The notes under the pieces were generated by a model, which did not search any database, was not told the DNA's origin, and worked only from the letters and a program-made list of their open reading frames with translations. The translations under genes and the position numbers were made by a program. From an uncultured delta proteobacterium (GTDB taxonomy: Bacteria > Desulfobacterota > Desulfobaccia > Desulfobaccales > 0-14-0-80-60-11): a stretch of DNA of 64,000 nt. This document shows positions 8,270 to 62,535 of this stretch, piece after piece. The stretch's first letter is position 1. The number at the start of each line of letters is the position of its first letter. The stretch is taken from assembly GCA_963834795.1 (NCBI GenBank), contig CAWIDL010000021.1, forward strand, positions 134,243 to 198,242, in the 5' to 3' direction.

Positions 8270-8397
8270 TAATAATAACTCAATGGCATGGACGATACCT
8301 TTTTGAGAGCGGCGTTATTATTAATCTCCAAACGGTGCAGCAGGGGGTGCAGTTGAATATTGTCCCCCAGGGTTTCAAGATTACCATGAAATAGAAA

Positions 8398-41077: not shown

Positions 41078-41351
41078 ATTTCTCCCAAACACGCCACCCA
41101 GCGCGAACCGTTCTTCCCGAGGTTAACCCCGAGAAGATTCCTCTTTTTGTGGCCAAATTGTCTTGTGGAGGGCATGATAGCACAAATTTTGAATGGCAAG
41201 GTATCTTTTTTGAGAATTGGCCTTACCAACCTCTTCCATAATTAGCGATCACTTGCCATGATCGGCTCTCATCGTAGGAGCGGTGAAAATACGAGATATG
41301 ATCTAAATTTCTATAACTACCATTTCAAAACGGTTCGAGGCATCGCCAAAC

Positions 41352-47608: not shown

Positions 47609-48276
47609 CCCACCCCCCGGACGGTTTCGACATACTGGGCGGCGGGGCCCAGTTTCTTGCGCAGCGCCACGATTTTCACATCCACCGCCCGGTCCGTCAC
47701 CGGATAATCATCGCCGTGAATGCCCTCGACAATATGAGCCCGGGTGAGGACCCAGCCCGGGCGGCGAGCCAGCAGATGGAGGAGGCGAAACTCGGTGGCC
47801 GTCAGGTCAACAGGCTGCCCCTGGACCAAAACCTCGTGGCGGCCGGGGTCGATGACCAGGTCATGGATCTTGAGAAGCGCGTCTTCACCCGGCGGCGCGG
47901 TGCGGCGGCGGCGCAGCACCGTCCGGATCCGGGCCAGCAAGACCCTGGTACTGAAAGGCTTGGTGATGTAGTCCTCCGCTCCCAACTCCAGACCGGTGAC
48001 GATGTCCGCCTCTTCTCCTTTGGCGGTGAGCATAATAATCGGCGCCAGCCGGGTCTTGGCGTCCATCTTGAGACTCCGGCAGACCTCCAGTCCGTCCACT
48101 CCCGGGAGCATCAGATCCAGCAAGATCAGGTCCGGCGTGGTCGAGTGGGCGAGGCGCAATCCTTCCTCCCCCGTAGTGACTGCGGTTACCCGGTACCCCT
48201 CCTTGGCCAGGTTGTATTTGAGGAGTTCCAGGATGTCTTCGTCATCTTCAACCACTAAAATGCTTTCGTGGGCCAT
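47590..48276 (-). CDS. OmpR/PhoB-family response regulator
   Basis: 228 aa with receiver motifs ILVVEDDEDI and LDLMLPGVDG, and the winged helix VETVRGVGYRFK. No adjacent histidine kinase. Confidence 0.95.
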   Translation of the reverse strand: MAHESILVVEDDEDILELLKYNLAKEGYRVTAVTTGEEGLRLAHSTTPDLILLDLMLPGVDGLEVCRSLKMDAKTRLAPIIMLTAKGEEADIVTGLELGAEDYITKPFSTRVLLARIRTVLRRRRTAPPGEDALLKIHDLVIDPGRHEVLVQGQPVDLTATEFRLLHLLARRPGWVLTRAHIVEGIHGDDYPVTDRAVDVKIVALRKKLGPAAQYVETVRGVGYRFKG

Positions 48277-48332: not shown

Positions 48333-48764
48333 TCAATCCAACTCGCTTTCACGTAACCACAACTTTATCCGCGCCGCTATCTGATCCCGCACTTCCCGAA
48401 ATTTTGCCAGCTTTGCTTCTTCCGAGCCGACAAAGGCCACCGGATCTTCGAAGGGCCAGTACATCCGATACCTGAAGCCGGGGAAGGTTATGGGACAATT
48501 TTCCTCTGTCTTCTCACAAACAATGATTAAATAGTCAACGGTCATTTTGCCCATGAATTCTTTGAGGCTCTTGGACCGCTGCTCACTGAGATCAAGGCCC
48601 GCTTCCGCCATCACTTTTTGGGCCTGGGGATCGATTTCCTTCAGTTCATAGCCGGCGCTGAACACCTCAAAGCGATCGCCGGCGAGCTTTTTCAGGAAGG
48701 CCTCGGCCATCTGGCTCCGGGCGGCATTATGGGTGCAGAGGAAGAGGACCTTGGTTTTTTCCAT
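48333..48764 (-). CDS. arsC: arsenate reductase (LMW-PTPase type)
   Basis: 143 aa with VLFLCTHNAARSQMAE (CX5R P-loop). Confidence 0.9.
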   Translation of the reverse strand: MEKTKVLFLCTHNAARSQMAEAFLKKLAGDRFEVFSAGYELKEIDPQAQKVMAEAGLDLSEQRSKSLKEFMGKMTVDYLIIVCEKTEENCPITFPGFRYRMYWPFEDPVAFVGSEEAKLAKFREVRDQIAARIKLWLRESELD

Positions 48765-48813: not shown

Positions 48814-49464
48814 TCAAAAGAAAATTTCGCAGACGCCAACGAAAATGAGGATCAAGCCGGAGATCACCCCGGTTAACTTGCCCAGCCGGTGAAATCCGAA
48901 TTGACCGCCTGATATGCCAATCCAGATCGTCATGATGCTGAACCAGAAGACGGAAATCGTTAATAAAATGGGACTTAGGCCCAACATCCCCGCCCCGACG
49001 CCATTGGGGATATTATTTATAGTCAGGCCCAGGGATAATGCGGTGGCTTCCCTCAGGTCGATATGCCCGGAGAAATCCCAGTCGGCAATAATCGGGTTGT
49101 CGAGAATCGAGACTATTTGACGAAAACCAAATCTGGGGAGACCGGTTTCAGCAACCAGTCGTGTCTCTTCCTGGGGCTCTTGGCCCCGGTGCAGGACTTT
49201 CTCCTGGAAGATTACCCAGATCCCGGCGGCGATTATGATGCCTCCCCCCAATAAACCGGCCATTTCAGGGCTTATGAACAGATAGATGCTCTGACCGAGG
49301 AGTACTGACAAAAGGGTGCCGCATGAGGTTACTGAGGCAATGAGCAGGTTGGAGGTAAAGGGAATGTTAATCTTCCTGATTCCGTAAGAAACGCCCACTC
49401 CGATATTGTCAAGATTACTGGATAATGACAGTAACAAGATGGTCGCCAGATGCAGTATTTGCAC
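48814..49464 (-). CDS. MntP/YtaF-family (DUF204) membrane protein
   Basis: 216 aa with the repeated DNIGVG/NNIPNGVGAG motifs typical of DUF204 duplicated-domain transporters. Confidence 0.75.
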   Translation of the reverse strand: MQILHLATILLLSLSSNLDNIGVGVSYGIRKINIPFTSNLLIASVTSCGTLLSVLLGQSIYLFISPEMAGLLGGGIIIAAGIWVIFQEKVLHRGQEPQEETRLVAETGLPRFGFRQIVSILDNPIIADWDFSGHIDLREATALSLGLTINNIPNGVGAGMLGLSPILLTISVFWFSIMTIWIGISGGQFGFHRLGKLTGVISGLILIFVGVCEIFF

Positions 49465-50664
49465 TTAACGTTCCTTGAGCATCTCGGCCTTGTCGGTAAC
49501 TTCCCAAGGCAAGTTAAGGTCGAGGCGCCCCACCTGGCCATAGGCCGCCAGCTTCCGGTAAAAGCGTCCTTTATTCAGGGCGGGAAGGTGCCTCAGGTTG
49601 AAATCCCGCAGGATGGCGGCCAGGCGAAAATCGAAGTGCCGCTCCAGCAGGTTGGCCAGTTCCTCATCCGGGAACTTGCCGGTGCCGAAGGTTTCCACCT
49701 GAAGACTGACCGGTCGGGAAAAGCCGATGGAATAGCTTAACTGGACCTCGCATTCCTCCGCCAGTCCGGCCGCCACCACATTCTTGGCGGCATAGCGCGC
49801 CGCATAAGCCCCCACCCGATCGATGTGCACGGGGTCCTTGCCGCTCAAGGCGTTGCCGCTGGTCCGGGCATATTCGCCATAGGTGTCAACGGCGGTTTTG
49901 CGGCCCGTGAGCCCGGAATGCACCCCCGGGCCGCCTAAAATGAGGTGTTTCATCGGATTGACAAAGATCAGGGTTTGGTCATCCGGTTTAAGCTCTTCAT
50001 CGGCGAAGGCCGGTTTGATCACCGCTTCCCGGATATCGTGGTGCAATCGCTCATCGGGTATCTCACGGCACGCGGCGTTGGAGCTGCCGGCGATGACCGT
50101 AACGCTATGAATCCGGAAGGGCCGGCGGTTTCTATACTCCACCCCTATCTGGGTCTTGCCGTCCGGCGACAGATAGGGCACATGATTCTGAATCCGGGCG
50201 GTGACGATTTGCCGGGCCAGTTGGTGCGCCAACCAAATGGGCAGGGGCATCAAGGCCGCGGTCTGGCGGCAGGCAAAACCGAAGACTGTGGCCTGCTGCC
50301 TCACATGGATGTTTTCCACTTGCTCTTCCGTCAGTTGGTTCTCATTGAAAAAGAGATCCGCATCCGGCGGATATTCTTGCAGGCTGGTTAAAATGCTACA
50401 GGTGGGGGCGTCAAAGTCAGGTTTCACATAGCCGAGCTGGCCGAGGAACTTGCGGGCCACACCGGGGATATCGACTTTAATTTCAGAGACAAACCGGGCG
50501 GCAATGAACAGGATGGAAGTGGCCACGCCACATTCGGCCCGCACATGGGCCTGGGGGTCTTGCGCCAGGAAATGATCCACGATGGCATCGCTGATCTGAT
50601 CGCAGATCTTATCCGGATGCCCCTCGGTTACCGACTCCGACATGAAGATAAAGTCATTTTTCAT
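49465..50664 (-). CDS. metK: methionine adenosyltransferase (divergent MetK)
   Basis: 399 aa with SESVTEGHPDKICDQISDAIVD, GLTGRKTAVDTYG and SGKDP. Confidence 0.9.
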   Translation of the reverse strand: MKNDFIFMSESVTEGHPDKICDQISDAIVDHFLAQDPQAHVRAECGVATSILFIAARFVSEIKVDIPGVARKFLGQLGYVKPDFDAPTCSILTSLQEYPPDADLFFNENQLTEEQVENIHVRQQATVFGFACRQTAALMPLPIWLAHQLARQIVTARIQNHVPYLSPDGKTQIGVEYRNRRPFRIHSVTVIAGSSNAACREIPDERLHHDIREAVIKPAFADEELKPDDQTLIFVNPMKHLILGGPGVHSGLTGRKTAVDTYGEYARTSGNALSGKDPVHIDRVGAYAARYAAKNVVAAGLAEECEVQLSYSIGFSRPVSLQVETFGTGKFPDEELANLLERHFDFRLAAILRDFNLRHLPALNKGRFYRKLAAYGQVGRLDLNLPWEVTDKAEMLKER

Positions 50665-50707: not shown

Positions 50708-53700
50708 TCACTCCAGGGCCGGCTCCGGGACTTCGTTTACGCCATCCGCCGGCGGTTTCTTGGTGGCTTCGTTCACCACCAGGGGCAGCAGGGCGCTGCC
50801 GGAAATCACCAGGCCGTCCAGCAGGCCCACCGGGGCCAGGCCCAGCAGACTTCTCAGTCCGGGGACCGCCAGGGTCAAGAATTGCACCGCCAGCGAGCCC
50901 CCCACGGCCAGGGTCAGGTAGTGGTTGGGAGGCAATTTCCCCGAGCTAAAGAGGCCGTGGGTTTCCGAACGGCAACTGATGGCGTGCAGGAGCTGCCCGG
51001 TGGTGAGGCTGTGAAAGGCCAAGGTGCTGGTTTGAGCCCCCAGGCCGTAGCGCATCAGGCCATAGCCATAGGCCCCCAAAGCCCCGGTGGTGATGGCCCC
51101 GGACTCGAAGGCCATCCTCTTAAAGTCGCCGCCGGTGAAGATCGGCCGGGCGGGATCGCGGGGCGGGCGCTCCAGGATATCGGGCTCCGGCGCTTCCATC
51201 GCCAGGGCCAACCCGGGAAAGATATCGGAAATCAGGTTGATCCACAGAAGCTGGGCCGCGGTCAGGGGAGACCCCAGGCCGACGGCCATGGCCACAAAGG
51301 TCAACATGATTTCGCTGAGATTGGTGGCCAGGAAGAAATGCACCGACTTTCGGATGTTGATATAGATGGTGCGGCCGTCCCGGATGGCGAGGATCAAGGT
51401 ATCGAGATTATCCTTCTCCAGGACCACGTCCGCCACTTCCCGGGCGATATCGGTGCCGGTGCGGCCCATGGCGATGCCCACGTCCGCCGCCTTGAGGGCC
51501 GGGCCGTCGTTGATGCCGTCGCCGGTCATGGCCACCACCTTGCCGGCCGCCTGCAAGGCCTGGACGATCTCAAGCTTATGGGACGGGCTGACCCGGGCAA
51601 AGACCTGGGCCCTCTTGACCAGGGCCCGCAAGACCTCCGGCTCGATCTCCGCCAGGTGGGTGGCGTCCAGGATTTCCAAGGGGCCCCCCCGGCTCAGCTC
51701 CAGTTCCTTGCCGATGGCATAGGCGGTGGGACTCTGGTCGCCGGTGATCATCACCGTCTCGATCCCCGCCCGATGGAAGGCCCGAATCGCCTCGCCCACC
51801 CCCTCGCGGATGGGATCGGCCATGCCCACCATGCCCAGCCAGACCAGGTCATCGAGTTCCTCAAACACGGACTCATCCGGACCCAGGGCATAGGCCAGCC
51901 CCAGGACCCGCAGGGCGTCCCCCGCCATCTCCTCGTTCTTAGCCTCGAGGCGCTGCCGGTCTGCATCGGTAAGCGGCAATTTCCGGCCATCCTGGAGATG
52001 CCAGGAACACCGGGCCAGAACTTCCAGGGGGCTGCCTTTGAGGGCAAAAAGCCTTCCGGCGGGCGGATCATCATGCAACGTGCCCATAAACAGGCGGTTT
52101 TCCGAACGGTGATTGATTTTTATTAGGGGATAGCGCCTCCTCAGCTCGGCGACGTCGAGACCCACCAGGATGGCCAGGTGCACCAGGGCGCCCTCCGTGG
52201 GGGTCCCCCGGAGTACATAATCCCCGCCTTCCTGATAGATTTCGATTTCGTTGCACAGCACCGAGACCTTTAGGAGCTGCTCCAATTCCTCACAGGCGAA
52301 GGGGGGAATCGGCCCATCGGGCCCCAGGAATTGCCCGTCCGCCACCTTGATAGTCTTCATGCAGGCAAAGATTTGGAGCACGGACATCTGGTTGCGGGTG
52401 ATGGTCCCGGTCTTATCCAGACAGACGGTCTGCACCGAACCCAGGGTCTCCACCGCGTTGAGATGGCGGATCAAGACATAGTGTTTGCGCATGTCCCGGA
52501 TACCCATGGCCAGGGTGGTGGTGGCCACGGTGGGCAGCCCTTCCGGCACCGCCGCCGCCGCCAGGCAGATGGAGGTGCGCAGCATCTCCAACCAACCGAA
52601 GCCCCACATGAACCCCATGACAAACACCACCCCGCAGACACCGCAACAGAGGAGGACCAGTTGATTCCCCAACTGGCCGAGCTGCCTCTCCAGAGGGGTT
52701 TCCGGGCTGGCGGCTTCGCCGATCAGAGACTGGATCAGGCCGATTTCGGTATAAATCCCGGTGGCCACCACCACCGCCATACCTTCGCCGCCAGTCACCA
52801 GGGTGCCCATGAAGACCAGGTTGATCCGGTCTCCCAAGGGGATATGATCCCGTTCCAGGGCCCGGGTATTTTTAGTCACAGGCAGGCTTTCCCCGGTCAG
52901 GGCCGACTCATCCACGGACAGGTGGCTGGCCTCTATCAGGCGCGCATCGGCGGCCACATAGCTGCCGGGGCGCAGTACCAGGAGGTCTCCCGGGGTCACT
53001 TCTTCGGAGGGAATTTCGCTCAGCCGTCCTTCCCGTAAGACCAGGGCGGCAGGCCGCACCAGGGTTTGCAGGGAGCGAATGGTTTTTTCGGATTCGCTTT
53101 CGGTTTTATAGCCGATGAAGGCATTGACGATCACTACGCCGGAAATCAACACGGCGTCGGCCAGCCCTCCAATGACGACGGAAAGACCGGCGGCCGCGCC
53201 CAGGAGGGCTACCGGGAGCGATTTAAACTGATCCAGGAAGATTCCCCAGCCGGACCGGGGCTCGGCTTCCGGCAAGAGATTGGCGCCGTATTTCTGGCGG
53301 TTTCTCTGGACGGCCTTGAGGGACAACCCCATTTCCCTGGAGGTCTGCCATTCGGCCAACACCGCCTCGGCTTCCAGCCGGTGCCAGGGTTGCGCCGGCT
53401 GCTCTGCCGGATAGGCAAAGAGACCTTTGAATCTGTCTAAGACGGTGGCCTGATCTTCCGGCCCGGTGGCAGCCCCGGCTTTACTGGGGACAGGAAATGA
53501 AGAGCCCGGCTGAGGTTGGCTCAGGCAATCGGAGACGATCCCTTCAATTAAGGCCGCAATGGTTTGGGGATTGTTATCCGAATTGTAGCAGACCAGAACA
53601 TTGCCGGTGAGGGCATTGGCCGAGGCCAGGGAAATATCCTGCAGCCGCGCCAGTCGCGACTCCAGCAGCTTCTCCAGGGATTTCGAGCGGTACAGGCCCT

Positions 53701-53752
53701 CAACCTTAAACCTCGCCCTGCCCGCCACCGCGGTATGTATCGCCTCGACCAT
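50708..53752 (-). CDS. P2-type cation-transporting ATPase with N-terminal CxxC-less HMA-like (HMA_2-type) domain
   Basis: 1014 aa with DKTGTIT, PEGLPTVATTTLA, TGDQ, MTGDGINDGPALK and a cation-ATPase-N region (HRLEAEAVLAEWQTS..GLS). The first ~75 aa (GRARFKVEGLYRS...ANALTGNVLVCYN) are paralogous to three small ORFs nearby. Confidence 0.95.
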   Translation of the reverse strand: MVEAIHTAVAGRARFKVEGLYRSKSLEKLLESRLARLQDISLASANALTGNVLVCYNSDNNPQTIAALIEGIVSDCLSQPQPGSSFPVPSKAGAATGPEDQATVLDRFKGLFAYPAEQPAQPWHRLEAEAVLAEWQTSREMGLSLKAVQRNRQKYGANLLPEAEPRSGWGIFLDQFKSLPVALLGAAAGLSVVIGGLADAVLISGVVIVNAFIGYKTESESEKTIRSLQTLVRPAALVLREGRLSEIPSEEVTPGDLLVLRPGSYVAADARLIEASHLSVDESALTGESLPVTKNTRALERDHIPLGDRINLVFMGTLVTGGEGMAVVVATGIYTEIGLIQSLIGEAASPETPLERQLGQLGNQLVLLCCGVCGVVFVMGFMWGFGWLEMLRTSICLAAAAVPEGLPTVATTTLAMGIRDMRKHYVLIRHLNAVETLGSVQTVCLDKTGTITRNQMSVLQIFACMKTIKVADGQFLGPDGPIPPFACEELEQLLKVSVLCNEIEIYQEGGDYVLRGTPTEGALVHLAILVGLDVAELRRRYPLIKINHRSENRLFMGTLHDDPPAGRLFALKGSPLEVLARCSWHLQDGRKLPLTDADRQRLEAKNEEMAGDALRVLGLAYALGPDESVFEELDDLVWLGMVGMADPIREGVGEAIRAFHRAGIETVMITGDQSPTAYAIGKELELSRGGPLEILDATHLAEIEPEVLRALVKRAQVFARVSPSHKLEIVQALQAAGKVVAMTGDGINDGPALKAADVGIAMGRTGTDIAREVADVVLEKDNLDTLILAIRDGRTIYINIRKSVHFFLATNLSEIMLTFVAMAVGLGSPLTAAQLLWINLISDIFPGLALAMEAPEPDILERPPRDPARPIFTGGDFKRMAFESGAITTGALGAYGYGLMRYGLGAQTSTLAFHSLTTGQLLHAISCRSETHGLFSSGKLPPNHYLTLAVGGSLAVQFLTLAVPGLRSLLGLAPVGLLDGLVISGSALLPLVVNEATKKPPADGVNEVPEPALE

Positions 53753-53813
53753 TGGGGCCGGATAACCTTGCCTATTCGACTCTGTTTAGCTAATAGGGAT
53801 ACTGCGGCTATGC

Positions 53814-54479
53814 TTATCCCTTCGTCTTCTTTTCCGGAGGGGCTTCGGGAGCCGGCTTGGAGGCCGTGGGGGACCCCGCCTTGGATTTCGGCCAGGCGGC
53901 GCAAGCTACGTCCTTGATGCCAGAGACCGCACCCATCAGGATGTCGCTGACGGCCTTGACCGCCGACTGACCCAGGCTGCCGGCGGCGTCGATGGCGCCG
54001 CCCACCGCCGCCTTGGCGGCCCCGCCCACATTGCCGCCGATCTCGGAAGTGGCCTCGATGACGCCGGTTACCGCGCTTTTGGCCACCTGGGCCACGTCTC
54101 CGCCGACTTCCGCGGCCCCTTTGACCGCGCCTTTGGCCAGTTGGGCGGCGGCCTTTTCGGCATCTCCGCCCAAGTCGGTGACGCCCAGGAGAATGCCCTT
54201 GGCCACATCCTTGGTGGTCACCAGCAGGCCGGCGCCCACCTCTTCGGTGGCCTTCAGCGCCCCTTTAAAGACGTCCTTGCTGATATTGATGGTCTCGTTG
54301 GCCACGCTGCCGGTGCCCTTCAGGACGTCGGTCACGGTGTTTCTCGCCAAACTGACGATTTGGGCTTCAATCTCGCTTAGCCCCTTGAGGCTGCCGACGA
54401 GGCCGTCTTTCACGGTGGCGCCGGCTTCGCCCAGCATTTCCCCAATACCCTTGCTCTCTTTGGTTTCCTGGGGGGACAT
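53814..54479 (-). CDS. G/A/V/K-rich repeat protein (amphipathic-repeat, LEA/phasin-like composition)
   Basis: 221 aa from the ATG at 54479 (GGAGGT upstream). Degenerate repeats: KGAVKGAAEVGGDVAQVAKSAVTGVIEATSEIGGNVGGAAKAAVGGAIDAAG. The tail is P/K-rich. Confidence 0.6.
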   Translation of the reverse strand: MSPQETKESKGIGEMLGEAGATVKDGLVGSLKGLSEIEAQIVSLARNTVTDVLKGTGSVANETINISKDVFKGALKATEEVGAGLLVTTKDVAKGILLGVTDLGGDAEKAAAQLAKGAVKGAAEVGGDVAQVAKSAVTGVIEATSEIGGNVGGAAKAAVGGAIDAAGSLGQSAVKAVSDILMGAVSGIKDVACAAWPKSKAGSPTASKPAPEAPPEKKTKG

Positions 54480-54603
54480 ATGGACCTCCAAAAATTTTGG
54501 TTAACTACAAGATAGTAATTTAAAGATACATTTCCAGGTCTGTGATGCCATTCCGGCGATGAGCCGGCCTGGCCCCCCTCCATGGCGGCTTAAAGGAAGG
54601 GTT

Positions 54604-54891
54604 TCAAAGACTGCGACTTATCGAGGCAGCCAGTTTGGTGGCGCTGACTTCAGGAAATAGGGAGGAAAAGGTCTCCTTCAATTGCAACAGAAAACTCAGG
54701 GAGGATAACCGCTGTCTGTCATAGTCGATGGACACCAGTCCCTGGACGGCGTCCGCTTCCACCCGGAGAATCCCTCTGATAGCCCCCAAGCGGTCCTGCA
54801 ACTCCCGCGCCAGGACTTCATTGCCCTTAACCCGGGTTATGGCCAGACTGAGCTGGCCCGGCCGGGATACGATGATCTCGAGGTCCTCCAA
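54604..54891 (-). CDS. stand-alone HMA_2-like domain protein
   Basis: 95 aa with a TTG start. GQLSLAITRVKGNEVLARELQDRLGAIRGILRVEADAVQGLVSIDYD aligns with the ATPase N-terminus. Confidence 0.6.
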   Translation of the reverse strand: MEDLEIIVSRPGQLSLAITRVKGNEVLARELQDRLGAIRGILRVEADAVQGLVSIDYDRQRLSSLSFLLQLKETFSSLFPEVSATKLAASISRSL

Positions 54892-55103
54892 GTTCTTCCC
54901 CCTTTTAGGAGAGCCGTCACCCGTGAGATAGAGAAAAAAATGGTTTAAACCCCAAAATGGCTTATTGTATTAAAAATATAATGACAAATGCAAGGCCTAC
55001 AACGATGGGGCGACGATATATATCGGGAGACGATGCTGGTGGGAGCTCACTTCCACTGAAAAGCCAAAGTGGGAAAGTGAACCTTGATTTTCCACCTGCT
55101 TAT

Positions 55104-55557
55104 TTATAACAATCTGGCCCCCAATTCAGCGACGCCGGACCTTTCCCCCTTTATCAGGGTTATATGGCCGGAGATATTCTCGTCTTTAATCCTTTCCACC
55201 AAATAACTCAAGCCATTGGAAGAGGCGTCCAGATACGGGTGGTCGATCTGTTCCGGGTCTCCGGTGAAGACGATCTTGCTGCCCCGGCCCACCCGGGTAA
55301 GGATGGTCTTGATCACCTGGGGGCTGAGATTCTGGCTTTCATCGCAAATAATGAACTGGCGAGGGATGCTGCGGCCCCGAATATAGGTTAGGGCCTCCAA
55401 TTCAATCTTGCCGCTGCTGAGCAAATACTCGGTGGAGCCGTTGGGCCGGATATGCTCGTTACAGAGATACTCCTGTATTATGCGGCACAATTTGATGGAT
55501 TTATGGACAACTACTTGATATAAGGGGGGATAATTAGCATAGCGGGGGGTTAAAAGG
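55104..55557 (-). pseudogene. PIN-PhoH (PhoH2) ATPase, C-terminal fragment
   Basis: ELEALTYIRGRSIPRQFIICDESQNLSPQVIKTILTRVGRGSKIVFTGDPEQIDHPYLD (Walker B region and after). It is in phase with the N-terminal fragment once the insertion is removed. Confidence 0.85.
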
Positions 55558-56846
55558 TGCTCGCTAATGGTGAAAGCCAAAAAGAGATGATTCGGCCGGA
55601 TTTTAACCGGGCCATCATGATAGATTTCCAAGGCGCCCAGATCTCATCCGACACCGGCTTTATCCTATTGAGAGAACTAGATGAGCGCTTCAGCATCATT
55701 GACCCCATGAGAGACTGCCTGGAAGACTTGAGATCACCTGCTCATACGAAACATGCCTTGGTCCAGATGGTTCGTCAAAGGGTTTACCAGATAGCTGCCG
55801 GTTATGAAGATTGCCACGACGCAGATTTTCTCCGCATAGATCCAGCTCTCAGGCTGGCGATTGGTAAAGACCATAAGGTAGGGGCCAGCCAATCTATGCT
55901 CTCCAGATCGGAGAATGACGTTCTTGGTAATGCATTTGGGTTAGCGGCTCTGGATGCGGCTTTGACCCGTTCAACTGATGCCCTGTTGCGCAGGAAGAAT
56001 AAGCGGCGGCTGATTATCGACTTGGATTCTACCGAGGACGCTGTGCATGGCAAGCAAGAGTGTGTGGCCTACAACGGTCATTTTGGCAAGAACTGCTTTC
56101 ACCCCCTGTTTTGCTTTAGCAGTGACGGAGATTGTCTTGGGGCAAAGCTGAGACCGGGCAAGGTTCACTCAGCCGATGGCGCTCTGGATTTTATCACCCG
56201 CTTGGTGGAGCGTTACCGCCCTCGGTTCAAGCTCTTTTGGCTGCGTGGCGATGCTGCCTTTGCCAACCCGGAGATCTACGAGTATTGCGAAGATAAGCGG
56301 ATCACGTACTTCATTCGATTACCGGCCAATAGAATCCTGATGGGTTTGATCGAGTCCCACCTTAACCGGCCCGTGGGCCGTCCCCCTAAGTCCGGGGTGC
56401 AAGTCAAGATGGTTGATTTGCAGTACCAGGCGAAGAGCTGGAGCAAGTCCCGCCGGGTGGTGGCCAAGATAGAGTGGCACCGGGGCGAGTTGTTCCCCCG
56501 GATCGGTTTTGTGGTCACCAACTCCAGATTGCCAGCCGCCCAGGTGATCAAGGTCTACAATGGGCGGGGCGATGTGGAAAACCGAATCAAGGAAGGCAAA
56601 AACACTTTGCGGTGGGATAAGACCAGCTGCCAACGGTTCGAGGCCAACCAGGCCAGGCTGAAGATGGGGGTTTTGGCCTACAACCTTCTGCATATGATCC
56701 GGCAGTTCTATGTTTGGGGTGAAGAAGTTAAACGGTCCATAGAGTGGCTGATCAAGCGATTAATCAAAGTGGGCGCCAGGGTTTCTTATCATGCCCGGAG
56801 ATGGTATGTCCATGTGGCCTCCGCCTTTCCTCTGGCACGCCACTAG
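55557..56846 (+). CDS. IS1380-family transposase (DDE)
   Basis: 429 aa with ISSDTGFILLRELDERF, IIDLDSTEDAVHGKQE, YNGHFGKNCFHPLF, FWLRGDAAFA and VENRIKEGKN. The start may be the ATG at 55587. Confidence 0.9.
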   Translation: MLANGESQKEMIRPDFNRAIMIDFQGAQISSDTGFILLRELDERFSIIDPMRDCLEDLRSPAHTKHALVQMVRQRVYQIAAGYEDCHDADFLRIDPALRLAIGKDHKVGASQSMLSRSENDVLGNAFGLAALDAALTRSTDALLRRKNKRRLIIDLDSTEDAVHGKQECVAYNGHFGKNCFHPLFCFSSDGDCLGAKLRPGKVHSADGALDFITRLVERYRPRFKLFWLRGDAAFANPEIYEYCEDKRITYFIRLPANRILMGLIESHLNRPVGRPPKSGVQVKMVDLQYQAKSWSKSRRVVAKIEWHRGELFPRIGFVVTNSRLPAAQVIKVYNGRGDVENRIKEGKNTLRWDKTSCQRFEANQARLKMGVLAYNLLHMIRQFYVWGEEVKRSIEWLIKRLIKVGARVSYHARRWYVHVASAFPLARH

Positions 56847-57625
56847 CGATCAGTGCTGGCCTGGGGTCCTTAAGCTCCATCGCAGTGAGGTGTCTGGGTT
56901 CTGATGGTTTGGTATGCCAAAATTTCTGGAAAAATTACTATATCCGGCAGATTGGTTGACAAATTCATTGAAATTTATGCTATCATTGCTGTCACCCGAC
57001 AATTCGGCTGCAAAAGAGGATGCTTCTCGGGGTTAAACTCGGGGAGATGACTCCACAAAACCGTTTTTTGACCGCGGTGGCCCAGGCTGCCGCATAATCT
57101 CAGATAATAAGGACCAGGAAAGGAGGTCAATAAAATGGACCAACCGATGTGTGTGCGCATTCTAATGACCATATGGCCAAAAAAAGGCCAAGCAGCGATG
57201 CGAAAGCATTGGCTGCGGGAAGGGGTTCGGTATTTCAAGGATGGGAAACCAGAAAAAGCAATAGCCACATTATATAATGTGACCAGTTCTCAGCGGGGCC
57301 CAGAGGACCAAGCGGGTCAAGCAGCATACTGCACGGCAGTCTATTATTCAGGGCTGGCCTATGCAGCTCTCGGGGACCTGGATTCTGCATGGGAGTGCTA
57401 TAGCGTTGTCAAAGACCTGAATCCTCCTAATAAAGAAATAGTGGAGGACCTTCGTGTAGCGATTGAAAAGAGTTAAGCGTAAGGGGCCATAAACGGGGAT
57501 TTGGGTCCTGTGGCCCCCATCAGTACTAACTACCATCTCTTGCTTCAGACAATCTTGAAGCAGGGTCGTGGCAATATCTACAGGGGCCATGGCGTACAAG
57601 TGGCGGACAAAATTTTAGAGGCCCC
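55558..57625 (+). mobile_element. 2,068-bp insertion: IS1380-family transposase gene plus a passenger TPR ORF
   Basis: Bounded by the 10-bp direct repeat GGTTAAAAGG (55548-55557 and 57626-57635). Removing it restores a continuous 464-aa PhoH2 frame. I could not identify terminal IRs. Confidence 0.7.
57135..57476 (+). CDS. small TPR-like protein (passenger in the insertion)
   Basis: 113 aa with AGGAGG 7 nt upstream. TPR-like: GKPEKAIATLYNV...YYSGLAYAALGDLDSAWECYSVVKDLNP. Confidence 0.55.
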   Translation: MDQPMCVRILMTIWPKKGQAAMRKHWLREGVRYFKDGKPEKAIATLYNVTSSQRGPEDQAGQAAYCTAVYYSGLAYAALGDLDSAWECYSVVKDLNPPNKEIVEDLRVAIEKS

Positions 57626-58576
57626 GGTTAAAAGGGGATACTCCAAATTATCATATATGGGCTGCATCCAGGGGCGGATCTTGTCTTCTTTATCCCCGGG
57701 AAGATAGCCCAGATCGTTGCCCAAGGGCACAATTGGCCTGGTGATGAGCAGGCGGTTAAATTTGCCGTTATCCTCAAAAACTCTTTCCAGGCCGGCAGCC
57801 AACGCCAGGATGGTCTTACCGGTCCCGGCCTTGCCGACTAAAGTAACGATCTTGATGTGATCATCCAGCAGCAGTTCCAGGGCAAATCTCTGTTCCTTAT
57901 TCAGTGCTTTGATGCCATAAGCCGTCTTGCCGTCATAAGTGAGCCTATGGATTTTATTATCACAGTATCTGGCCAGGGCTGAAATGGATGGAGTTTCACG
58001 AGACTTGATGATACAGAATTGGTTGGGATGAAGATTATCCTGGCTGGAGTCAACCGACCCTTCTTGATAAAACCGGTCTATTTCGGCCTGAGAAAGAATT
58101 GATTCCTGAACTCCCTTATATAACTTACAATAATCCACTTTATCGCTATAAAAATCTTCAGTCGGAATCCCCAAAACATCTGCTTTTATCCTCAGATTTA
58201 AATCCTTGGTAACCAAAACCAGCGGGCTATTTTCACTGTTCTTTAGATAATAGGCCAGGGCCAGGATTCTATTGTCAACGATGTTCAAATCGACCCCGTT
58301 CAACAGGTCGTAAGTTTTAATGCCGTTTAATTCAATGCGGATGGAGCCGCCTCCCGGGAGTTTGACCCCTTCCGCCAGACGACCCGTCAACCTCAATTCA
58401 TCCAACTTTCTGGAGGCGTCCCGGGCATTTCTGCCCACCTCATCCCCCCTCCTCTTGGTGCGGTCTAATTCCTCAATCACTGAAAGCGGCAAAACTATGG
58501 AGTTGTCTTCGAAAGCAAATAAGGATTCCGGATCGTGCAATAAAACGTTGGTATCCAAAATATAGATTTTTTTCAT
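57626..58576 (-). pseudogene. PIN-PhoH (PhoH2) ATPase, N-terminal fragment
   Basis: PIN domain (KIYILDTNVLLHDP) plus the PhoH Walker A (LVGKAGTGKTILALA). The frame runs into the insertion after ...PIYDNLEYPLLT. Confidence 0.9.
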
Positions 58577-58802
58577 TTGCCCCCTCTGGCAGCTACTGAG
58601 TCATTCGCTGCTAGTTGGCCATATACCGGATATTTTGGGAAGGGTTTTTCCCGGAAGAGAAGATGGGCGGATGAATGATATTTTCCTGATAGTCTAAGGC
58701 ATTAGACAAAATTAACCAAATTTTAACATTAAAAATATTAAATCATAACTTTCATGGGAAACAATTCAGATCAAAACAGCTTGATTAAATCGGAGGGTTG
58801 CC

Positions 58803-59174
58803 ATGCATGTGGATTCCGCATACGTACACGCCCTGGCAGGGAGGCTGCGGATCAAGATTCCCAAGATTAAAGGGGCGGCCGACAAGGCCCAGGAACTTGA
58901 GCAGCACCTGCAGCAATTTACCGGTATAGAATCCGTTTCCGCCAATCCTACCACCGGCAACGTGCTGGTCCTTTACAATCCCCACCGCATCGACCAGTGG
59001 AACATCATCTTATCCTTGAAAGATTTGGGGTATCTGTCTCAAGCCGCTTCGACGGTTAGCGTCATGGTGAGCCCCCAATCTTCTCCGCAGGGGGTGGTGG
59101 AAAAAGTAACCGCCGTCGTGGCCGCCACCTTGATGGAGGTCGCCCTGAGCCGGTTGGTCGGCGGCCTGATTTGA
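58803..59174 (+). CDS. stand-alone HMA_2-like domain protein
   Basis: 123 aa. VHALAGRLRIKIPKIKGAADKAQELEQHLQQFTGIESVSANPTTGNVLVLYNP is the closest paralogue of the ATPase N-terminus. Confidence 0.7.
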   Translation: MHVDSAYVHALAGRLRIKIPKIKGAADKAQELEQHLQQFTGIESVSANPTTGNVLVLYNPHRIDQWNIILSLKDLGYLSQAASTVSVMVSPQSSPQGVVEKVTAVVAATLMEVALSRLVGGLI

Positions 59175-59196
59175 GCAGCCCCGAAGGAGGGGGATC

Positions 59197-59310
59197 ATGT
59201 GGTATGTTATCAGCCTGATTATCGGGGCGGTCCTGGGTTTTTGGGGACGCTATTGGTTGATGGAGGTGAAATGCCGGGACTGTGGCGCCGCATATCTCGA
59301 ATATCCCTGA
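59197..59310 (+). CDS. small membrane peptide (37 aa)
   Basis: Hand-translated: MWYVISLIIGAVLGFWGRYWLMEVKCRDCGAAYLEYP. GAAGGAGGGGG lies upstream, 22 nt after the preceding stop. It is below the track cut-off. Confidence 0.4.
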   Translation: MWYVISLIIGAVLGFWGRYWLMEVKCRDCGAAYLEYP

Positions 59311-59506
59311 GGCGCCTTCAGGGTTGGCAGAGTTCAGATGGCGCCGGGAGGGCTTTTTCCTCCATTTTTCTGCGAATATGCCAGACCTGAGCGCCGCCTC
59401 CTGGAACGACACCAGAAAATAGCCCTTTCCCTGGGCTCTCACCTAGTCTTTAGCCTCGTTCAGGTCCTGCCGGTAATCCTTCCATAAAAAACTTAACCTG
59501 AGCAAA

Positions 59507-60079
59507 TCAGGCTTTTCTTGCCGCCGCGGTCCCGCTACTGCCTTCCACCAGGCCGCGGTTCAGCATGATAAAGCTGGCAAAGCCAAACCAGAGATAGTCG
59601 GACCAGGAAGGGAAAGTGACCTTCTCGGCGGCCCAAAGCCTGCTTAAGCCGAAGAAGATCAGGGTGAGCGGCACCAGGAGTTTCAGGTCCAGCCCCCCGG
59701 TAAGTTTGGCCAGCTGAGTATTGGCGGCCTGCAAGGAACCGGTCAAGCCGGCGGCAATTGCCGGGCCGGTCCCGGCGCCGGGATTCTCCGCCAGGGAGGC
59801 CAACCAGGCGGCCAGGGTGAGGACTTCGATCTCAGGAAAGAGTTCCCCCAAGGTCTCCGACAGGATTTCCAGGGAGGCCGTGGAGAATAAATGGTCCAGG
59901 TCGTAATGGATCAAGAGGCTCCCGGTGCCGGGTTTAGCCTCGACCTGCCGGATGCCCGGCACCTTGGCGAGCTTTTCCTGGGCCTGGCGGGCCAGGGCCG
60001 GGTTTCCCTTAATCTTGGCGGCCTTGAGACGCACCCGCCCCCGCAGGGCATGGACGACTTTGAGGCCCTCGAGTTCCAT
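59507..60079 (-). CDS. HMA_2-like domain protein with C-terminal membrane segment
   Basis: 190 aa with VHALRGRVRLKAAKIKGNPALARQAQEKLAKVPGIRQVEAKPGTGSLLIHYD and C-terminal hydrophobic helices (LLVPLTLIFFGL, YLWFGFASFIML). Confidence 0.7.
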   Translation of the reverse strand: MELEGLKVVHALRGRVRLKAAKIKGNPALARQAQEKLAKVPGIRQVEAKPGTGSLLIHYDLDHLFSTASLEILSETLGELFPEIEVLTLAAWLASLAENPGAGTGPAIAAGLTGSLQAANTQLAKLTGGLDLKLLVPLTLIFFGLSRLWAAEKVTFPSWSDYLWFGFASFIMLNRGLVEGSSGTAAARKA

Positions 60080-60097
60080 TCTCTGCTCCGAGAAGGG

Positions 60098-60403
60098 TCA
60101 ACTGCCTGGTTTAACTTTGGATGTGGCTACCGCCTCGGCTGTTGCGGCTACCGCCTCGGCTGTTGCGGTTGCCTCGCGTTCGGACTGGACCTCGGCCATC
60201 AGGTCGCTGATCTGCTCCCCGGCCTCGGCCGCGAACTCCTTGGCCATATCCGACAAGGTCAGATAGCCCCTGATCAGGGTCTTGGCCAGGGGGCGAGACA
60301 CCGCCGCCACGGCGGGAAGAACGATGGGGGCCGCCAGGGCCACCCCTAACACCACCAGAATGCTGGGAACTGCGCCCTTCAGACCTTTATCCAAAACGGC
60401 CAT
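60098..60403 (-). CDS. DUF5132-like small membrane protein
   Basis: Start at the ATG at 60403 (GGAGGAAGG upstream). It has an N-terminal TM segment, then LAKTLIRGYLTLSDMAKEFAAEAGEQISDLMAEVQSE, and ends in a tandem ATAEAV repeat. Confidence 0.6.
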   Translation of the reverse strand: MAVLDKGLKGAVPSILVVLGVALAAPIVLPAVAAVSRPLAKTLIRGYLTLSDMAKEFAAEAGEQISDLMAEVQSEREATATAEAVAATAEAVATSKVKPGS

Positions 60404-60516
60404 GGCCTTCCTCCTTTTCCAAGGCAGCAATTTGAAAATTTAACATAGTGATTATTTAACCAAAAATCAATGAGACCTTAATAATTTCCTAACAGATATA
60501 TATCAGTATTCGATAT

Positions 60517-60867
60517 ATGGATTTCCAAAGACAAATCTCCCAGGGCTTCTGGCAGGGTATGGTGAAACTCATCGTCCTGCACCAGGCGAATCTGGGGCCG
60601 GTCTACGGCGGCCGGCTGAGTAAGTATTTCCACGGCCTGGGCTACGCAATCAGCCCCGGAAGCCTGTACCCTTTGCTCCATAGCATGGAAAAGGCCAACC
60701 TCATGCGCTGTCACATCAGGATCTTCAAGGGGCGGGCGCGCAAATATTATGAGCTTACTCCACAAGGGCAAGACTGCCTGGAGGCCTCGCGCCAGGAAGC
60801 GGCAGAAATTGTCCGTGAGGTGATCCTGAGCGGCCTGCCGGATGAAGCTCTAGTGAATTCAGATTAA
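60517..60867 (+). CDS. PadR-family transcriptional regulator
   Basis: 116 aa with LIVLHQANLGPVYGGRLSKYF...ISPGSLYPLLHSMEKANLM...RKYYELTPQG. Confidence 0.9.
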   Translation: MDFQRQISQGFWQGMVKLIVLHQANLGPVYGGRLSKYFHGLGYAISPGSLYPLLHSMEKANLMRCHIRIFKGRARKYYELTPQGQDCLEASRQEAAEIVREVILSGLPDEALVNSD

Positions 60868-61156: not shown

Positions 61157-61852
61157 GTGATGGGAGATTTTAGCTTAAGCATTGATCTTCTCAAGGATAT
61201 CCTAAAAGTTGCCAAGCCTTTTGGCCACAACGAAAAGACCAGGGAACTGAACATAGGGTTCGGCTTTATTTATTATGGGATAGTTAGGGCCTTAAGACCG
61301 GATCATATCTTAGTGATAGGATCAGGATATGGCTTCAGCGTCGTCTGTCTGGCCTTGGGTCTAAAGGACAACGGCCGGGGCAGGTTAAGTTTTGTCGATC
61401 CGGCCTATTCTTTATTAAAGAATGGGCCCCTCATGACCGTGGGCGGACGGGGCGTCTGGACCGATGAGTCTTATGTTAAAGCCCATTTCGGGCGCTTCGG
61501 CGTAGAAAACCTGGTCACTCATTATAAGATGCGGAGCGATGAGTTTTTCCCCAGTTTCCAGGAGCTAAAATTACCTCCCATAAATCTGGCCTTCATTGAC
61601 GGCAGCCATGCCTACAAAGACGTGAAATACGATTTCATCAAGGTCTTGGAGCAGTCGCATAGGAATACCTATATCTTTCTGCACGACACCAACATTTACC
61701 TCCGGGAATTGGTAAAGCATGCGGGGGTGAAGAAATGGTTGAAATTCATCAAGAAGGAGGAGGAATCTTTTGAGGTAATCGATTTTCCCTTTTCCTCGGG
61801 CGTCGCCCTGGTCCGCGTCTTGGACCCCTCCGCCTGGAAGAGACTCCATTGA
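61157..61852 (+). CDS. class I SAM-dependent methyltransferase (O-methyltransferase-like)
   Basis: 231 aa with ILVIGSGYGFSVVCLA and AFIDGSHAYKDVKYDF. The start is GTG; AGGAGG lies upstream. Confidence 0.7.
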   Translation: MMGDFSLSIDLLKDILKVAKPFGHNEKTRELNIGFGFIYYGIVRALRPDHILVIGSGYGFSVVCLALGLKDNGRGRLSFVDPAYSLLKNGPLMTVGGRGVWTDESYVKAHFGRFGVENLVTHYKMRSDEFFPSFQELKLPPINLAFIDGSHAYKDVKYDFIKVLEQSHRNTYIFLHDTNIYLRELVKHAGVKKWLKFIKKEEESFEVIDFPFSSGVALVRVLDPSAWKRLH

Positions 61853-62535
61853 CCGGGCTAACCATATCTCTCCTGCTGGCCATACTTACGGGGTATCTAT
61901 ACTGGCGCTACGTCTGGTTTTTTCGCAATCCCCCGCGGGTCCCGCCGCCGGGAGAGAGCATGGTCAGTCCCGCCGATGGCACCGTAGTCTATGTCACCAA
62001 GGTGGCGCCCCAGCAAGAGGTAATAATGATCAAGCAGGGGCTGCCGGCGACCCTCACCGACATCGTCCGGGAAGACCTGGACTCTCCCAAAATCCTGATC
62101 GGCATCTTTATGAGCCCCTTCAACGTCCACTACAACCGGGCCCCGCTTCCCGGGAAGGTCAACTTTATCCGGCACCACCCCGCCAAGGTGAAGAATTTTT
62201 GCATGGCTCCCATGCATTGGCGGACCCTGCTGAAACGGGCGCCCTTTTATGAGAATTCCAGACACATAATCCACAATGAACGATTGGTGACCAATGTGGA
62301 GGGCAGATTTAAGGGAGAGGCGCTCTCCTACTATGTCGTGCAAATCGCCGGGAAGAGTGTGAAGGGCATTGATAGTTATGTTAACCCGGGAGAGCAGGTC
62401 ACTAAGGGTGAAGTCTTCGGCATGATCCGCATCGGCTCCCAAGTGGACCTGGTGGCGCCGCTCCTGCCCGAGATGAGCATCATGGTCCAGCCGGGGGATA
62501 AGGTCCGGGCCGGAGAGACCGTCTTAATCGCTTAA
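61849..62535 (+). CDS. psd: phosphatidylserine decarboxylase-family proenzyme (short, archaetidylserine decarboxylase-like)
   Basis: 228 aa with VSPADGTVVYV, FMSPFNVHYNRAPLPG and the cleavage-site-like GMIRIGSQVDL. The TTG start overlaps the upstream stop (TTGA). Confidence 0.85.
   Translation: MTGLTISLLLAILTGYLYWRYVWFFRNPPRVPPPGESMVSPADGTVVYVTKVAPQQEVIMIKQGLPATLTDIVREDLDSPKILIGIFMSPFNVHYNRAPLPGKVNFIRHHPAKVKNFCMAPMHWRTLLKRAPFYENSRHIIHNERLVTNVEGRFKGEALSYYVVQIAGKSVKGIDSYVNPGEQVTKGEVFGMIRIGSQVDLVAPLLPEMSIMVQPGDKVRAGETVLIA

Follow-up and report, generated by a model that had tools for sequence, protein, structure and literature searches.

Introduction

The CoBaHMA domain ('Conserved Basic residues HMA'), which is the HMA_2 family of Pfam (PF19991), was originally recognised at the N-terminus of W-type calcyanin, the product of ccyA, a gene that marks intracellular amorphous calcium carbonate (iACC) in cyanobacteria (PMC8890360). 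It differs from the metal-binding HMA domain in an extra strand (β0) with a conserved histidine, in conserved basic residues and in the loss of the cysteines, and anionic partners such as lipids have been put forward as its ligands (Gaschignard 2024, as quoted in bioRxiv 10.64898/2025.12.07.689555). In Microcystis aeruginosa PCC 7806, ccyA is flanked by two DUF5132 genes, and also by genes for two CoBaHMA proteins, one a monodomain protein and the other with a helical hairpin at its C-terminus, and for a Ca2+/H+ exchanger (cax), and several of the flanking genes are co-expressed with ccyA (bioRxiv 10.1101/2024.07.07.602159). CoBaHMA and DUF5132 have so far been discussed just as candidate parts of cyanobacterial intracellular carbonate formation, and neither has an assigned function. 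Here, a gene cluster around a CoBaHMA-fused P-type ATPase of the P2A class is described. It occupies 47.6-60.9 kb of a 64-kb stretch (hereafter the window) of contig CAWIDL010000021.1 from an uncultured soil bacterium of the Desulfobaccales.

This cluster shares with the ccyA neighbourhood the HMA fold, the β0 histidine, the basic residues and the absence of CxxC, as well as the companions: DUF5132, a CoBaHMA protein with a C-terminal transmembrane (TM) hairpin, a CoBaHMA monodomain protein and a nearby Ca2+-type transporter. On the other hand, it has neither calcyanin nor another protein with glycine zippers (GlyZip), its transporter is the CoBaHMA-fused P2A ATPase instead of a CAX exchanger, and it has additional conserved partners, namely a predicted solenoid of 22-residue repeats, a variant of MetK and a PadR-family regulator. 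The hosts also differ, being anaerobic Thermodesulfobacteriota and Nitrospirota for the present cassette and cyanobacteria for ccyA. Another comparable system is the ferrosome (fez) operon, said to have been described by Grant et al. in 2022, in which a P1B-6 ATPase and small membrane proteins, encoded together, reportedly give rise to iron inclusions. A P-type ATPase alongside small membrane proteins of unknown function in anaerobic hosts is common to both systems, whereas the ATPases belong to different classes, no protein is shared, and no inclusion is known for the present cassette.

An initial annotation of the window described the function of such HMA_2/ATPase clusters as unknown to its author; the domain had already been published as CoBaHMA, and the DUF5132 and CoBaHMA neighbourhood was known beside ccyA and cax. 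The CoBaHMA domain, its fusion to transport proteins and its association with DUF5132 are thus in the literature. In the literature searched, no description was found of the ordered cassette with the solenoid, nor of the pair of PadR operators, the phosphate context or the obligate variant-MetK partner. The occurrence of the trio in an ordered cassette with a Ca2+-type pump across unrelated anaerobes argues for a general cation-handling module rather than a cyanobacterial curiosity. We put at about even the chance that an anionic cue acts on the pump through the CoBaHMA, DUF5132 and solenoid proteins, which would regulate it or serve as its scaffold at the membrane, and that the system serves divalent-cation and phosphate homeostasis.

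Conservation and layout of the cassette

The gene order of the cluster is conserved far beyond its own lineage. A scan with the repeat protein, counting one genome per species, found a relative in at least 208 genomes, and 80 loci were taken for comparison (related loci carry L-numbers and database proteins P-numbers). Neighbours were counted by tblastn among the evaluable loci. The ATPase gene directly follows the repeat gene in 65 of 72 loci, and a MetK gene follows the ATPase gene in 54 of 61; a DUF5132 gene and a CoBaHMA gene lie upstream of the repeat gene in 51/62 and 50/62 loci, respectively, and a padR gene lies upstream in 19/57. The hosts are Desulfobaccales, Syntrophobacterales, Thermodesulfovibrionia and other Nitrospirota, Dissulfurispiraceae, Binatia, Syntrophorhabdaceae and others. 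Where the ATPase homologues are 61-70% identical, the neighbourhoods keep the core gene order. Two loci at 67-70% ATPase identity run from a divergent padR through DUF5132, the CoBaHMA-TM gene, an antisense 123-aa CoBaHMA gene, a CoBaHMA gene of ~100 aa and the repeat gene of ~220 aa to the CoBaHMA-ATPase and MetK, and DUF5132 is 78-84% identical in loci where ATPase identity is just 67-70%. In L005 (ATPase 61% identical) the core is kept without padR and without the ~100-aa CoBaHMA gene. The start of MetK overlaps the stop codon of the ATPase gene in L003 and L005. A partial system is present in a cultured ammonia oxidiser, Nitrosovibrio sp. Nv6 (L006 8853-10947), which encodes DUF5132 (154 aa), a 94-aa CoBaHMA-like protein and a 203-aa repeat protein together with an antisense DUF3562 gene; this locus has no ATPase or MetK gene, and a Na_Ca_ex gene is found 6 kb off.

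A dedicated conserved cassette around a predicted Ca2+-type P2A pump with CoBaHMA accessory proteins is firmly supported by this comparison of sequences, as the initial annotation had suspected in proposing a dedicated system. The idea that unrelated genes are fortuitously juxtaposed around an ordinary Ca2+ efflux pump might draw on the insertion sequence (IS) and the PIN-PhoH gene inside the cluster, which indicate that the region tolerates insertions. However, the cluster is not fortuitous, because its gene order recurs across phyla in dozens of species genomes; a common operator at two promoters and the overlap of start and stop codons in L003 and L005 speak against chance as well, which leaves this idea hardly credible.

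Five transcription units are counted across the cluster, as follows.

Unit 1, plus strand
60517-60867, plus: PadR-family regulator (Pfam PadR), divergent from the DUF5132 operon

Unit 2, minus strand
60098-60430, minus: DUF5132 single-pass membrane protein; likely start Met10 at 60403 (101 aa)
59507-60079, minus: 190-aa CoBaHMA protein with C-terminal TM hairpin (HMA_2, E 4e-19)
59495-59513, minus: terminator-like hairpin after this operon, a pattern match from a consensus scan

Unit 3, plus strand
58803-59174, plus: 123-aa CoBaHMA monodomain protein with the basic signature (HMA_2, E 8e-14)
59197-59310, plus: 37-aa open reading frame (ORF), one TM helix followed by CRDC
59347-59363: hairpin after this unit

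Unit 4, minus strand, split by an IS
57637-58576, minus: PIN-PhoH, N-terminal part (Pfam PIN_4 and PhoH)
55474-57636, plus: IS insertion of 2163 bp, boundaries from alignment to the intact gene of L009
55104-55473, minus: PIN-PhoH, C-terminal part (Pfam PhoH positions 93-186)

Unit 5, minus strand, seven-gene operon from 54891 down to 47590 with intergenic gaps of 0-124 nt
54604-54891, minus: 95-aa degenerate CoBaHMA paralogue (HMA_2 below cut-off, and tblastn)
53814-54479, minus: 221-aa protein of 22-residue repeats (periodicity and structure model)
50708-53752, minus: 1014-aa P2A-type ATPase with N-terminal CoBaHMA domain at residues 5-74 (Pfam, NCBIfam)
49465-50664, minus: MetK-like gene of a divergent clade (TIGR01034)
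48814-49464, minus: YtaF/MntP-family membrane protein, its start abutting the MetK-like stop (TIGR02840, 162.5 bits against a cut-off of 149.6; Pfam Mntp, E 1e-8)
48333-48764, minus: low-molecular-weight (LMW) phosphatase/ArsC-like protein (LMWPc, E 1.5e-19; arsC_pI258, 119.8 bits, below the cut-off of 174.3)
47590-48276, minus: OmpR-type response regulator, the final gene of the operon (best match PhoB TIGR02154, 246.5 bits, below the cut-off of 296.2)

The genes listed by the initial annotation are all present where it placed them; its list lacked the MetK-like gene, which is the best conserved of the partners, the phosphate context, the split of PIN-PhoH by the IS and the part of the operon beyond 50708. 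The cluster proteins are also found on metagenome contigs, and homologues of 84-97% identity are labelled Desulfobaccales. An Rfam scan of the whole window placed no riboswitch or other RNA family inside the cluster, and the 190-aa and repeat proteins had no match in a plasmid collection. The 37-aa ORF is conserved at 76-91% identity in the close relatives L009-L020. Related peptides of the TM+CxxC kind are encoded in more distant relatives, and lie behind the 123-aa gene in L012, L027, L030 and L037. The 37-aa ORF was not found in L003, L004 and L086, where an ORF of 65-71 aa ('MAW...KRxC') takes its position.

CoBaHMA domains of the cluster

Three of the four domains match HMA_2 above its cut-off of 30 bits: residues 5-74 of the ATPase (32.6 bits, E 9e-8), the 123-aa protein (52.3 bits) and the 190-aa protein (69.5 bits), the last over the whole model including the TM part. 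The 95-aa protein falls below the cut-off (23.8 bits, E 5e-5), and is tied by tblastn to the 190-aa paralogue, being 37% identical to about its first 95 residues (alignments of 92-99 aa with E 7e-15 and 2.5e-12); the two proteins have an LFPEI tail in common. The four paralogous modules of the initial annotation, and its observation that they lack CxxC, are borne out by the Pfam scan that it had proposed and by inspection of all four sequences.

The basic signature is retained in three of the families. H6, G11, R12 and R14 of the ATPase domain are invariant in 110 homologues with the N-terminus present, and K/R16 is conserved; the 190-aa family has H10, R15 and R17 without exception; and the consensus of 40 orthologues of the 123-aa protein retains the His, GRxRxK and TG. 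The consensus of 25 orthologues of the 95-aa protein has neither the His nor RxRxK, and this protein is, judged from the alignments, a conserved degenerate CoBaHMA paralogue. In the AlphaFold2 (AF2) model of the 190-aa protein, β0 (6-12), β1 (15-20), α1 (27-38), β2 (43-49), β3 (54-59) and α2 (61-80) are followed by TM helices at 132-150 and 159-173; the domain has a pLDDT of 81-87, with β0 present and the last strand not modelled. Compact Foldseek matches of this model are HMA domains and KipI-N, each with E above 1e-3.

An HMA-fold domain on the pump N-terminus with free paralogues nearby is also the layout of P1B/CopZ systems, and the cluster might accordingly be read as a classical heavy-metal resistance system, with an HMA-domain pump, free metallochaperones and a metal-sensing repressor. 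Besides this resemblance to CopA/CopZ, the weak CopZ/HMA matches of the 123-aa protein (E 0.002-0.004), the PadR protein, which is nearest to the Rv3488 family, and the CRDC of the 37-aa peptide, the sole CxxC within the cluster, are in keeping with such a system. However, none of the four domains has the cysteines, the classical motif GMxCxxC is absent, and matches to Pfam HMA reach just E 0.004-0.04. The pump itself belongs to another subfamily, P2A instead of P1B: the P1B subfamily model scores it at 242.9 bits, below the cut-off of 346 and far under the P2 models (617 bits), and its TM6 reads WINLISD without a CPx motif. Heavy-metal resistance is very improbable on this evidence and, like chance juxtaposition, is practically ruled out; a classical metallochaperone role was rejected for want of cysteines and for the P2 class of the pump. 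The basic patch of CoBaHMA hints at an anion, and not a metal, as the ligand.

P2A pump

The HMA_2 domain of the ATPase is followed by Cation_ATPase_N, E1-E2_ATPase, Hydrolase and Cation_ATPase_C, and the P-type core includes DKTGT and PEGLP. The P2-type assignment of the initial annotation holds: the nearest solved relatives are Listeria LMCA1 (E 4e-148), SPCA1 and SERCA, and among NCBIfam models those for Ca2+ ATPases of the PMR1 and SERCA types score highest. The protein has every P-type core domain and motif in common with the P2A Ca2+ ATPases LMCA1, SPCA1/PMR1 and SERCA, and the Ca-site residues of TM4, TM5 and TM6 are conserved in it; it differs from these ATPases in adding the N-terminal CoBaHMA domain and a linker of ~45 aa.

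Among 116 aligned ATPases, E404 (in PEGLP), N811 and E814 (TM5), N839, S842 and D843 (TM6) and Q920 (TM8) are invariant. These residues are the equivalents of SERCA E309, N768, E771, N796, T799 (here Ser) and D800, with SERCA E908 changed to Gln. The TM5 glutamate (SERCA E771 equivalent) is replaced by Ala in LMCA1, and the TM8 position is Gln here, Arg in LMCA1 and Glu908 in SERCA. The pattern of Ca-site residues fits Ca2+, which would presumably be the transported ion.

Glutamine at the SERCA E908 position is found in Na,K- and H,K-ATPases, and its invariance here could mean that the pump moves a monovalent cation, Na+ or K+, the link with the MetK-like gene reflecting the need of adenosyltransferases for K+ and Mg2+. 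Such a link would be in line with translational coupling of the ATPase and MetK-like genes in several loci and with their pairing down to 40% MetK identity. This is nonetheless rather unlikely, since TM6 has N..SD as in SERCA and not the D..TD of Na,K-ATPase, the top whole-protein matches of the ATPase are Ca2+ pumps, and the recurrent neighbours (YtaF/MntP, CorA, CDF) handle divalent cations.

DUF5132 and the 22-residue-repeat protein

The DUF5132 protein matches its Pfam family, as the initial annotation had anticipated, at 30.1 bits (cut-off 25, E 5e-7), and an N-terminal hydrophobic segment, VPSILVVLGVALAAPIVLPAVAAV, is visible in its sequence. The 221-aa protein matches no Pfam family and has a sharp 22-residue periodicity; it is 58-62% identical in distant loci and thus as conserved as the pump. 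AF2, run with 37 homologues, gives seven helices of ~19 residues linked by GG[DN] turns (pTM 0.65; pLDDT 78 for the whole model, more than 90 for its C-terminal half), followed by a basic, Pro-rich tail predicted to be disordered. The sole structural matches of the model are designed helical-repeat proteins, with DHR4 the best (TM-score 0.62/0.69). Related repeat domains are found in fusions with a MucR/Ros zinc-finger domain at the C-terminus and, more distantly, with a receiver domain (P0122-P0125, P0130, P0131, P0211, P0214, P0218; L008 8001-9659), and a DUF5132 gene follows the MucR fusion in L008. The model and the fusions point to a soluble interaction module rather than a coat. The coat-like amphipathic protein of the initial annotation was dropped, as the protein is modelled as a compact helical-repeat solenoid, and the sequestration role that the annotation attached to the cluster is a conjecture. 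In P0202 (126 aa), the N-terminus of DUF5132 and its TM segment are joined directly to the C-terminal repeats of the repeat protein, which may be a natural fusion or deletion or an assembly artefact.

The relation of CoBaHMA to calcyanin raises an alternative in which the cassette would build, or supply, a mineral or polyanion inclusion inside the cell, made of Ca-carbonate of the iACC type or of Ca/Mg-polyphosphate, with the ATPase loading the cation while the CoBaHMA, DUF5132 and repeat proteins organise the surface of the compartment. In its favour, W-type calcyanin, which marks iACC, begins with a CoBaHMA domain (PMC8890360); in Microcystis, the trio of DUF5132, CoBaHMA-TM and CoBaHMA stands beside ccyA and the Ca2+/H+ exchanger (bioRxiv 10.1101/2024.07.07.602159); for the iACC of Achromatium, P-type Ca2+ pumps have been suggested (PMC11773610); and iACC has been reported from some Nitrospirota (bioRxiv 10.64898/2025.12.07.689555). 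The adjacency of Pst and PhoU genes is also compatible with a phosphate-rich inclusion. However, no calcyanin is encoded. Calcyanin is described as having (GlyZip)3, apolar zippers of ~50 aa rich in Gly and small residues with a central Gly-Pro, whereas the repeats here are of 22 residues and charged (10% Lys, 11% Asp+Glu), have no Gly-Pro within them and are modelled as a soluble solenoid. No genes for carbonic anhydrase, bicarbonate transporters, ppk or CHAD were seen in the flanks, no inclusion is documented in these lineages, and fusion of the repeat domain to DNA-binding or receiver domains suits a regulator better than a coat. An inclusion is regarded as unlikely, though deserving more weight than the other alternatives considered here.

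Variant MetK after the pump

The protein encoded next to the pump passes the MetK equivalog model TIGR01034 (362.7 bits against a cut-off of 309.4), so that such proteins are likely annotated as ordinary S-adenosylmethionine (SAM) synthetases. It shares with canonical MetK the three-domain fold, and differs from it in having lost GAGDQG, Asp238 and Lys269 and in being tied to this ATPase. In alignment to a solved bacterial MetK (PDB 7r3b), the following replacements are seen in the window protein.

GAGDQG of canonical MetK: HVRQQA
Asp of GGPxGD (E. coli Asp238): His
GGGAFSGKD: SGNALSGKD
Lys (E. coli Lys269): His

These substitutions are kept across 66 cassette orthologues (with Lys269 replaced by His or Arg, and SGxALSGKD), in which GHPDK, Lys165, GRK, Lys265 and Asp271 are retained. 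In methionine adenosyltransferases, the changed residues hold the amino-acid moiety of methionine, and the kept residues bind triphosphate and Mg2+. The substitution pattern is a lead to an altered substrate, or to retained triphosphate chemistry, in this clade.

An exhaustive search over 1.84 billion representatives gave ~115 near-full-length proteins among the best 150 hits, of which ~20, including most of the closest, have no GAGDQG and have His at Asp238; canonical MetKs are mixed in from ~50% identity down among these 150. Three variants of 54%, 46% and 40% identity each have the gene for a homologous P2 ATPase immediately ahead of their own, and in two of the three cases an antisense HMA_2 gene lies alongside. 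The pairing of a pump with a MetK-like clade devoid of the canonical motifs is unexpected, and ordinary SAM-synthetase labels may mislead metabolic reconstructions.

It is conceivable that the MetK-like enzyme is central and that the pump and the CoBaHMA proteins are accessory, the enzyme making a SAM-like or other adenosylated or phosphate-derived product for modification of membrane lipids in phosphate stress. Retention of the triphosphate and Mg residues with change of the methionine-holding ones would suit such an enzyme, as would OlsB/OlsA-like acyltransferases after the MetK-like gene in at least nine loci and a pair of Methyltransf_24 and phosphatidylserine (PS)-decarboxylase genes beside the cluster here and in relatives. 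Yet in Nitrosovibrio sp. Nv6 the trio of DUF5132, CoBaHMA-like and repeat proteins occurs without MetK or ATPase, the lipid genes are confined to particular lineages and the variant clade has no known activity, so that a central role of the enzyme is doubtful.

PadR and its two predicted promoter boxes

The PadR protein, named as a cluster member by the initial annotation, matches Pfam PadR at 52.4 bits (cut-off 27, E 5e-14), and scores 72.7 bits against the NCBIfam Rv3488 family, below its cut-off of 140. Two copies of a conserved palindrome are found at the promoters of the cluster.

60495-60504: box 1, palindrome GATATATATC, between padR and DUF5132, 12 nt ahead of the padR start
55015-55024: box 2, GATATATATC, ~125 nt upstream of the 95-aa gene, abutting a σ70-like -35/-10 pair

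The 11-mer TGATATATATC has a single zero-mismatch match in the window, at box 1, and the GATATATATC core occurs just twice, at the two boxes. The position of box 1 is conserved in at least 20 PadR-bearing loci, and box 2 adjoins conserved TTG..N17..TATAAT-like elements in relatives. The relaxed core GA[TC]ATAT[AG]TC has 48 copies in 1.4 Mb of related loci, nearly all of them at the two promoter positions and essentially only in PadR-bearing lineages; in loci that have padR, both promoters bear the palindrome. There is good comparative evidence for a two-promoter PadR regulon that would act via GATATATATC as a putative operator.

Phosphate, divalent-cation and lipid context

Flanking genes were surveyed with Pfam in 148 ORFs pooled from 12 diverse loci, and neighbours were counted in 49 long loci. 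The commonest families in the flanks are HMA_2 (10), Pst permease (9), PstS-type binding protein (7) and a small Zn-ribbon protein (7), followed by ABC ATPase (6), PhoU (4), acyltransferase (4), OlsB-type GNAT (3), CorA (3) and LMWPc (3). Among the long loci, Pst genes are found within 10 kb in 23, an OlsB-like/OlsA-like pair after the MetK-like gene in 9-10, and CorA in 4; the small Zn-ribbon protein stands beside the antisense CoBaHMA gene in 22. In loci of the Nitrospirota type, pstSCAB-phoU adjoins the cassette, mostly upstream on the opposite strand (among others in L031, L040-L042, L046, L047, L051, L054, L061, L066, L067, L071 and L082), and OlsB-like and OlsA-like acyltransferases or CorA come after the MetK-like gene. 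In the lineage of the window, PIN-PhoH is part of the cluster, and the operon includes the PhoB-like regulator and YtaF/MntP. Inspection by eye of the region ahead of the 95-aa gene, with no systematic search made, showed no convincing Pho box, and no relevant literature was found linking Ca2+-ATPases to the Pho regulon, nor on YtaF.

Beside the cluster, at 61157-62535 on the plus strand, overlapping genes of the Methyltransf_24 (MT24) and short PS-decarboxylase (PSD) families are followed by a large GT4 glycosyltransferase gene. The MT24 and PSD pair recurs near the cassette in L004, L024, L030, L037, L038, L072, L083 and L086, in L004 beside an acyltransferase and a FeeM-like gene.

Proposed role of the cassette

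The arrangement would be explained by a self-contained, PadR-controlled cassette around a SERCA/LMCA1-like P2A ATPase, which would most likely export a divalent cation from the cytoplasm, with Ca2+ as the first choice and Mn2+ as the second. The CoBaHMA domain on the pump would be accompanied by three free paralogues, one anchored by its TM hairpin, one soluble, and one degenerate without the basic patch, and the set would be completed by the single-pass DUF5132 protein and the soluble solenoid. Together, these proteins may form a membrane-proximal regulatory or scaffolding assembly that couples pump activity to an anionic cue, either the head groups of anionic phospholipids or (poly)phosphate. 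PadR would control both promoters through the GATATATATC box. Co-transcribed with the pump would be a presumably neofunctionalised MetK-like protein, the YtaF/MntP-type protein, the ArsC/LMW-PTP-like protein and the PhoB-like regulator. The adjacency of pstSCAB-phoU, OlsB/OlsA-like genes or CorA to the cassette elsewhere places the system in divalent-cation and phosphate homeostasis, and the setting would probably be phosphate limitation or lipid remodelling. We infer from the genes the transported ion, the anionic ligand, the physical association of the proteins and the physiological trigger.

Several observations weigh against regulation of a Ca2+-type pump in a phosphate setting. In contrast to curated P2A Ca2+ pumps, the ATPase scores under every NCBIfam equivalog cut-off (PMR1 616.6 against 798.3, SERCA 521.9 against 703.4, PMCA 414 against 507), and the Gln at the E908 position recalls the Na,K- and H,K-ATPases. 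A simple model of pump regulation gives no role to the MetK-like partner. Pst adjacency is concentrated in loci of the Nitrospirota type, with no case among the 19 loci of the Desulfobaccales type (L009-L027), and it may partly be inherited synteny rather than repeated selection. Finally, the cassette-bearing genomes found are all metagenome-assembled.

In a broader and speculative interpretation, which is unlikely to hold as a whole, the cassette would be a previously unrecognised and widespread phosphate-linked machine of anaerobic soil and groundwater bacteria, in which a CoBaHMA-gated Ca2+/Mn2+ P2A pump works with a neofunctionalised MetK-like enzyme whose triphosphate site is intact and whose methionine site is rebuilt. 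The DUF5132, CoBaHMA and solenoid proteins would then read an anionic polymer or lipid, and the system might drive intracellular deposition of Ca/Mg-(poly)phosphate or carbonate outside cyanobacteria. Parts of the cassette open to testing are the PadR regulon with its two sites, the pump, whose regulatory domain could be removed, and the partial system of Nitrosovibrio sp. Nv6, which can be cultured.

Insertion sequence and other features of the window

The IS that splits PIN-PhoH carries a DDE transposase gene (55557-56846; DDE_Tnp_1_4, E 7e-122) and a 113-aa TPR-like ORF (57135-57476), and is bordered by an 8-bp direct repeat, GATACTCC, as a target duplication; terminal inverted repeats were searched for at the IS and not found. 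In the closest relatives, L009-L020, PIN-PhoH is intact between the 123-aa and 95-aa genes, which rules out PIN-PhoH itself as an insertion into the cluster; just the IS was inserted. A near-identical contig, L001 (99-100% protein identity), has a different insert of ~993 bp (7287-8280) with an IS1595-type transposase at nearly the same site.

Elsewhere in the window, two adjacent TIR genes at 39500-42524 on the minus strand, encoding a 530-aa AAA + TIR_2 protein and a 390-aa CAP12-PCTIR_TIR protein, form a candidate anti-phage defence pair. Group II intron domains are matched by Rfam at 14016-14611 on the minus strand (RF01999, 107 bits; RF00029, 58 bits), and the large ORF near these hits (11991-13664) encodes a B12-binding radical SAM protein and not a reverse transcriptase. 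The segment 20000-30700 has a G+C content of 62-65%, compared with ~52% elsewhere, and codes for LUD/CCG/Fe-S proteins of the lactate-utilisation type, an FAD-linked oxidase and an 890-aa protein in which an ADP-forming acyl-CoA synthetase is combined with a GNAT domain.

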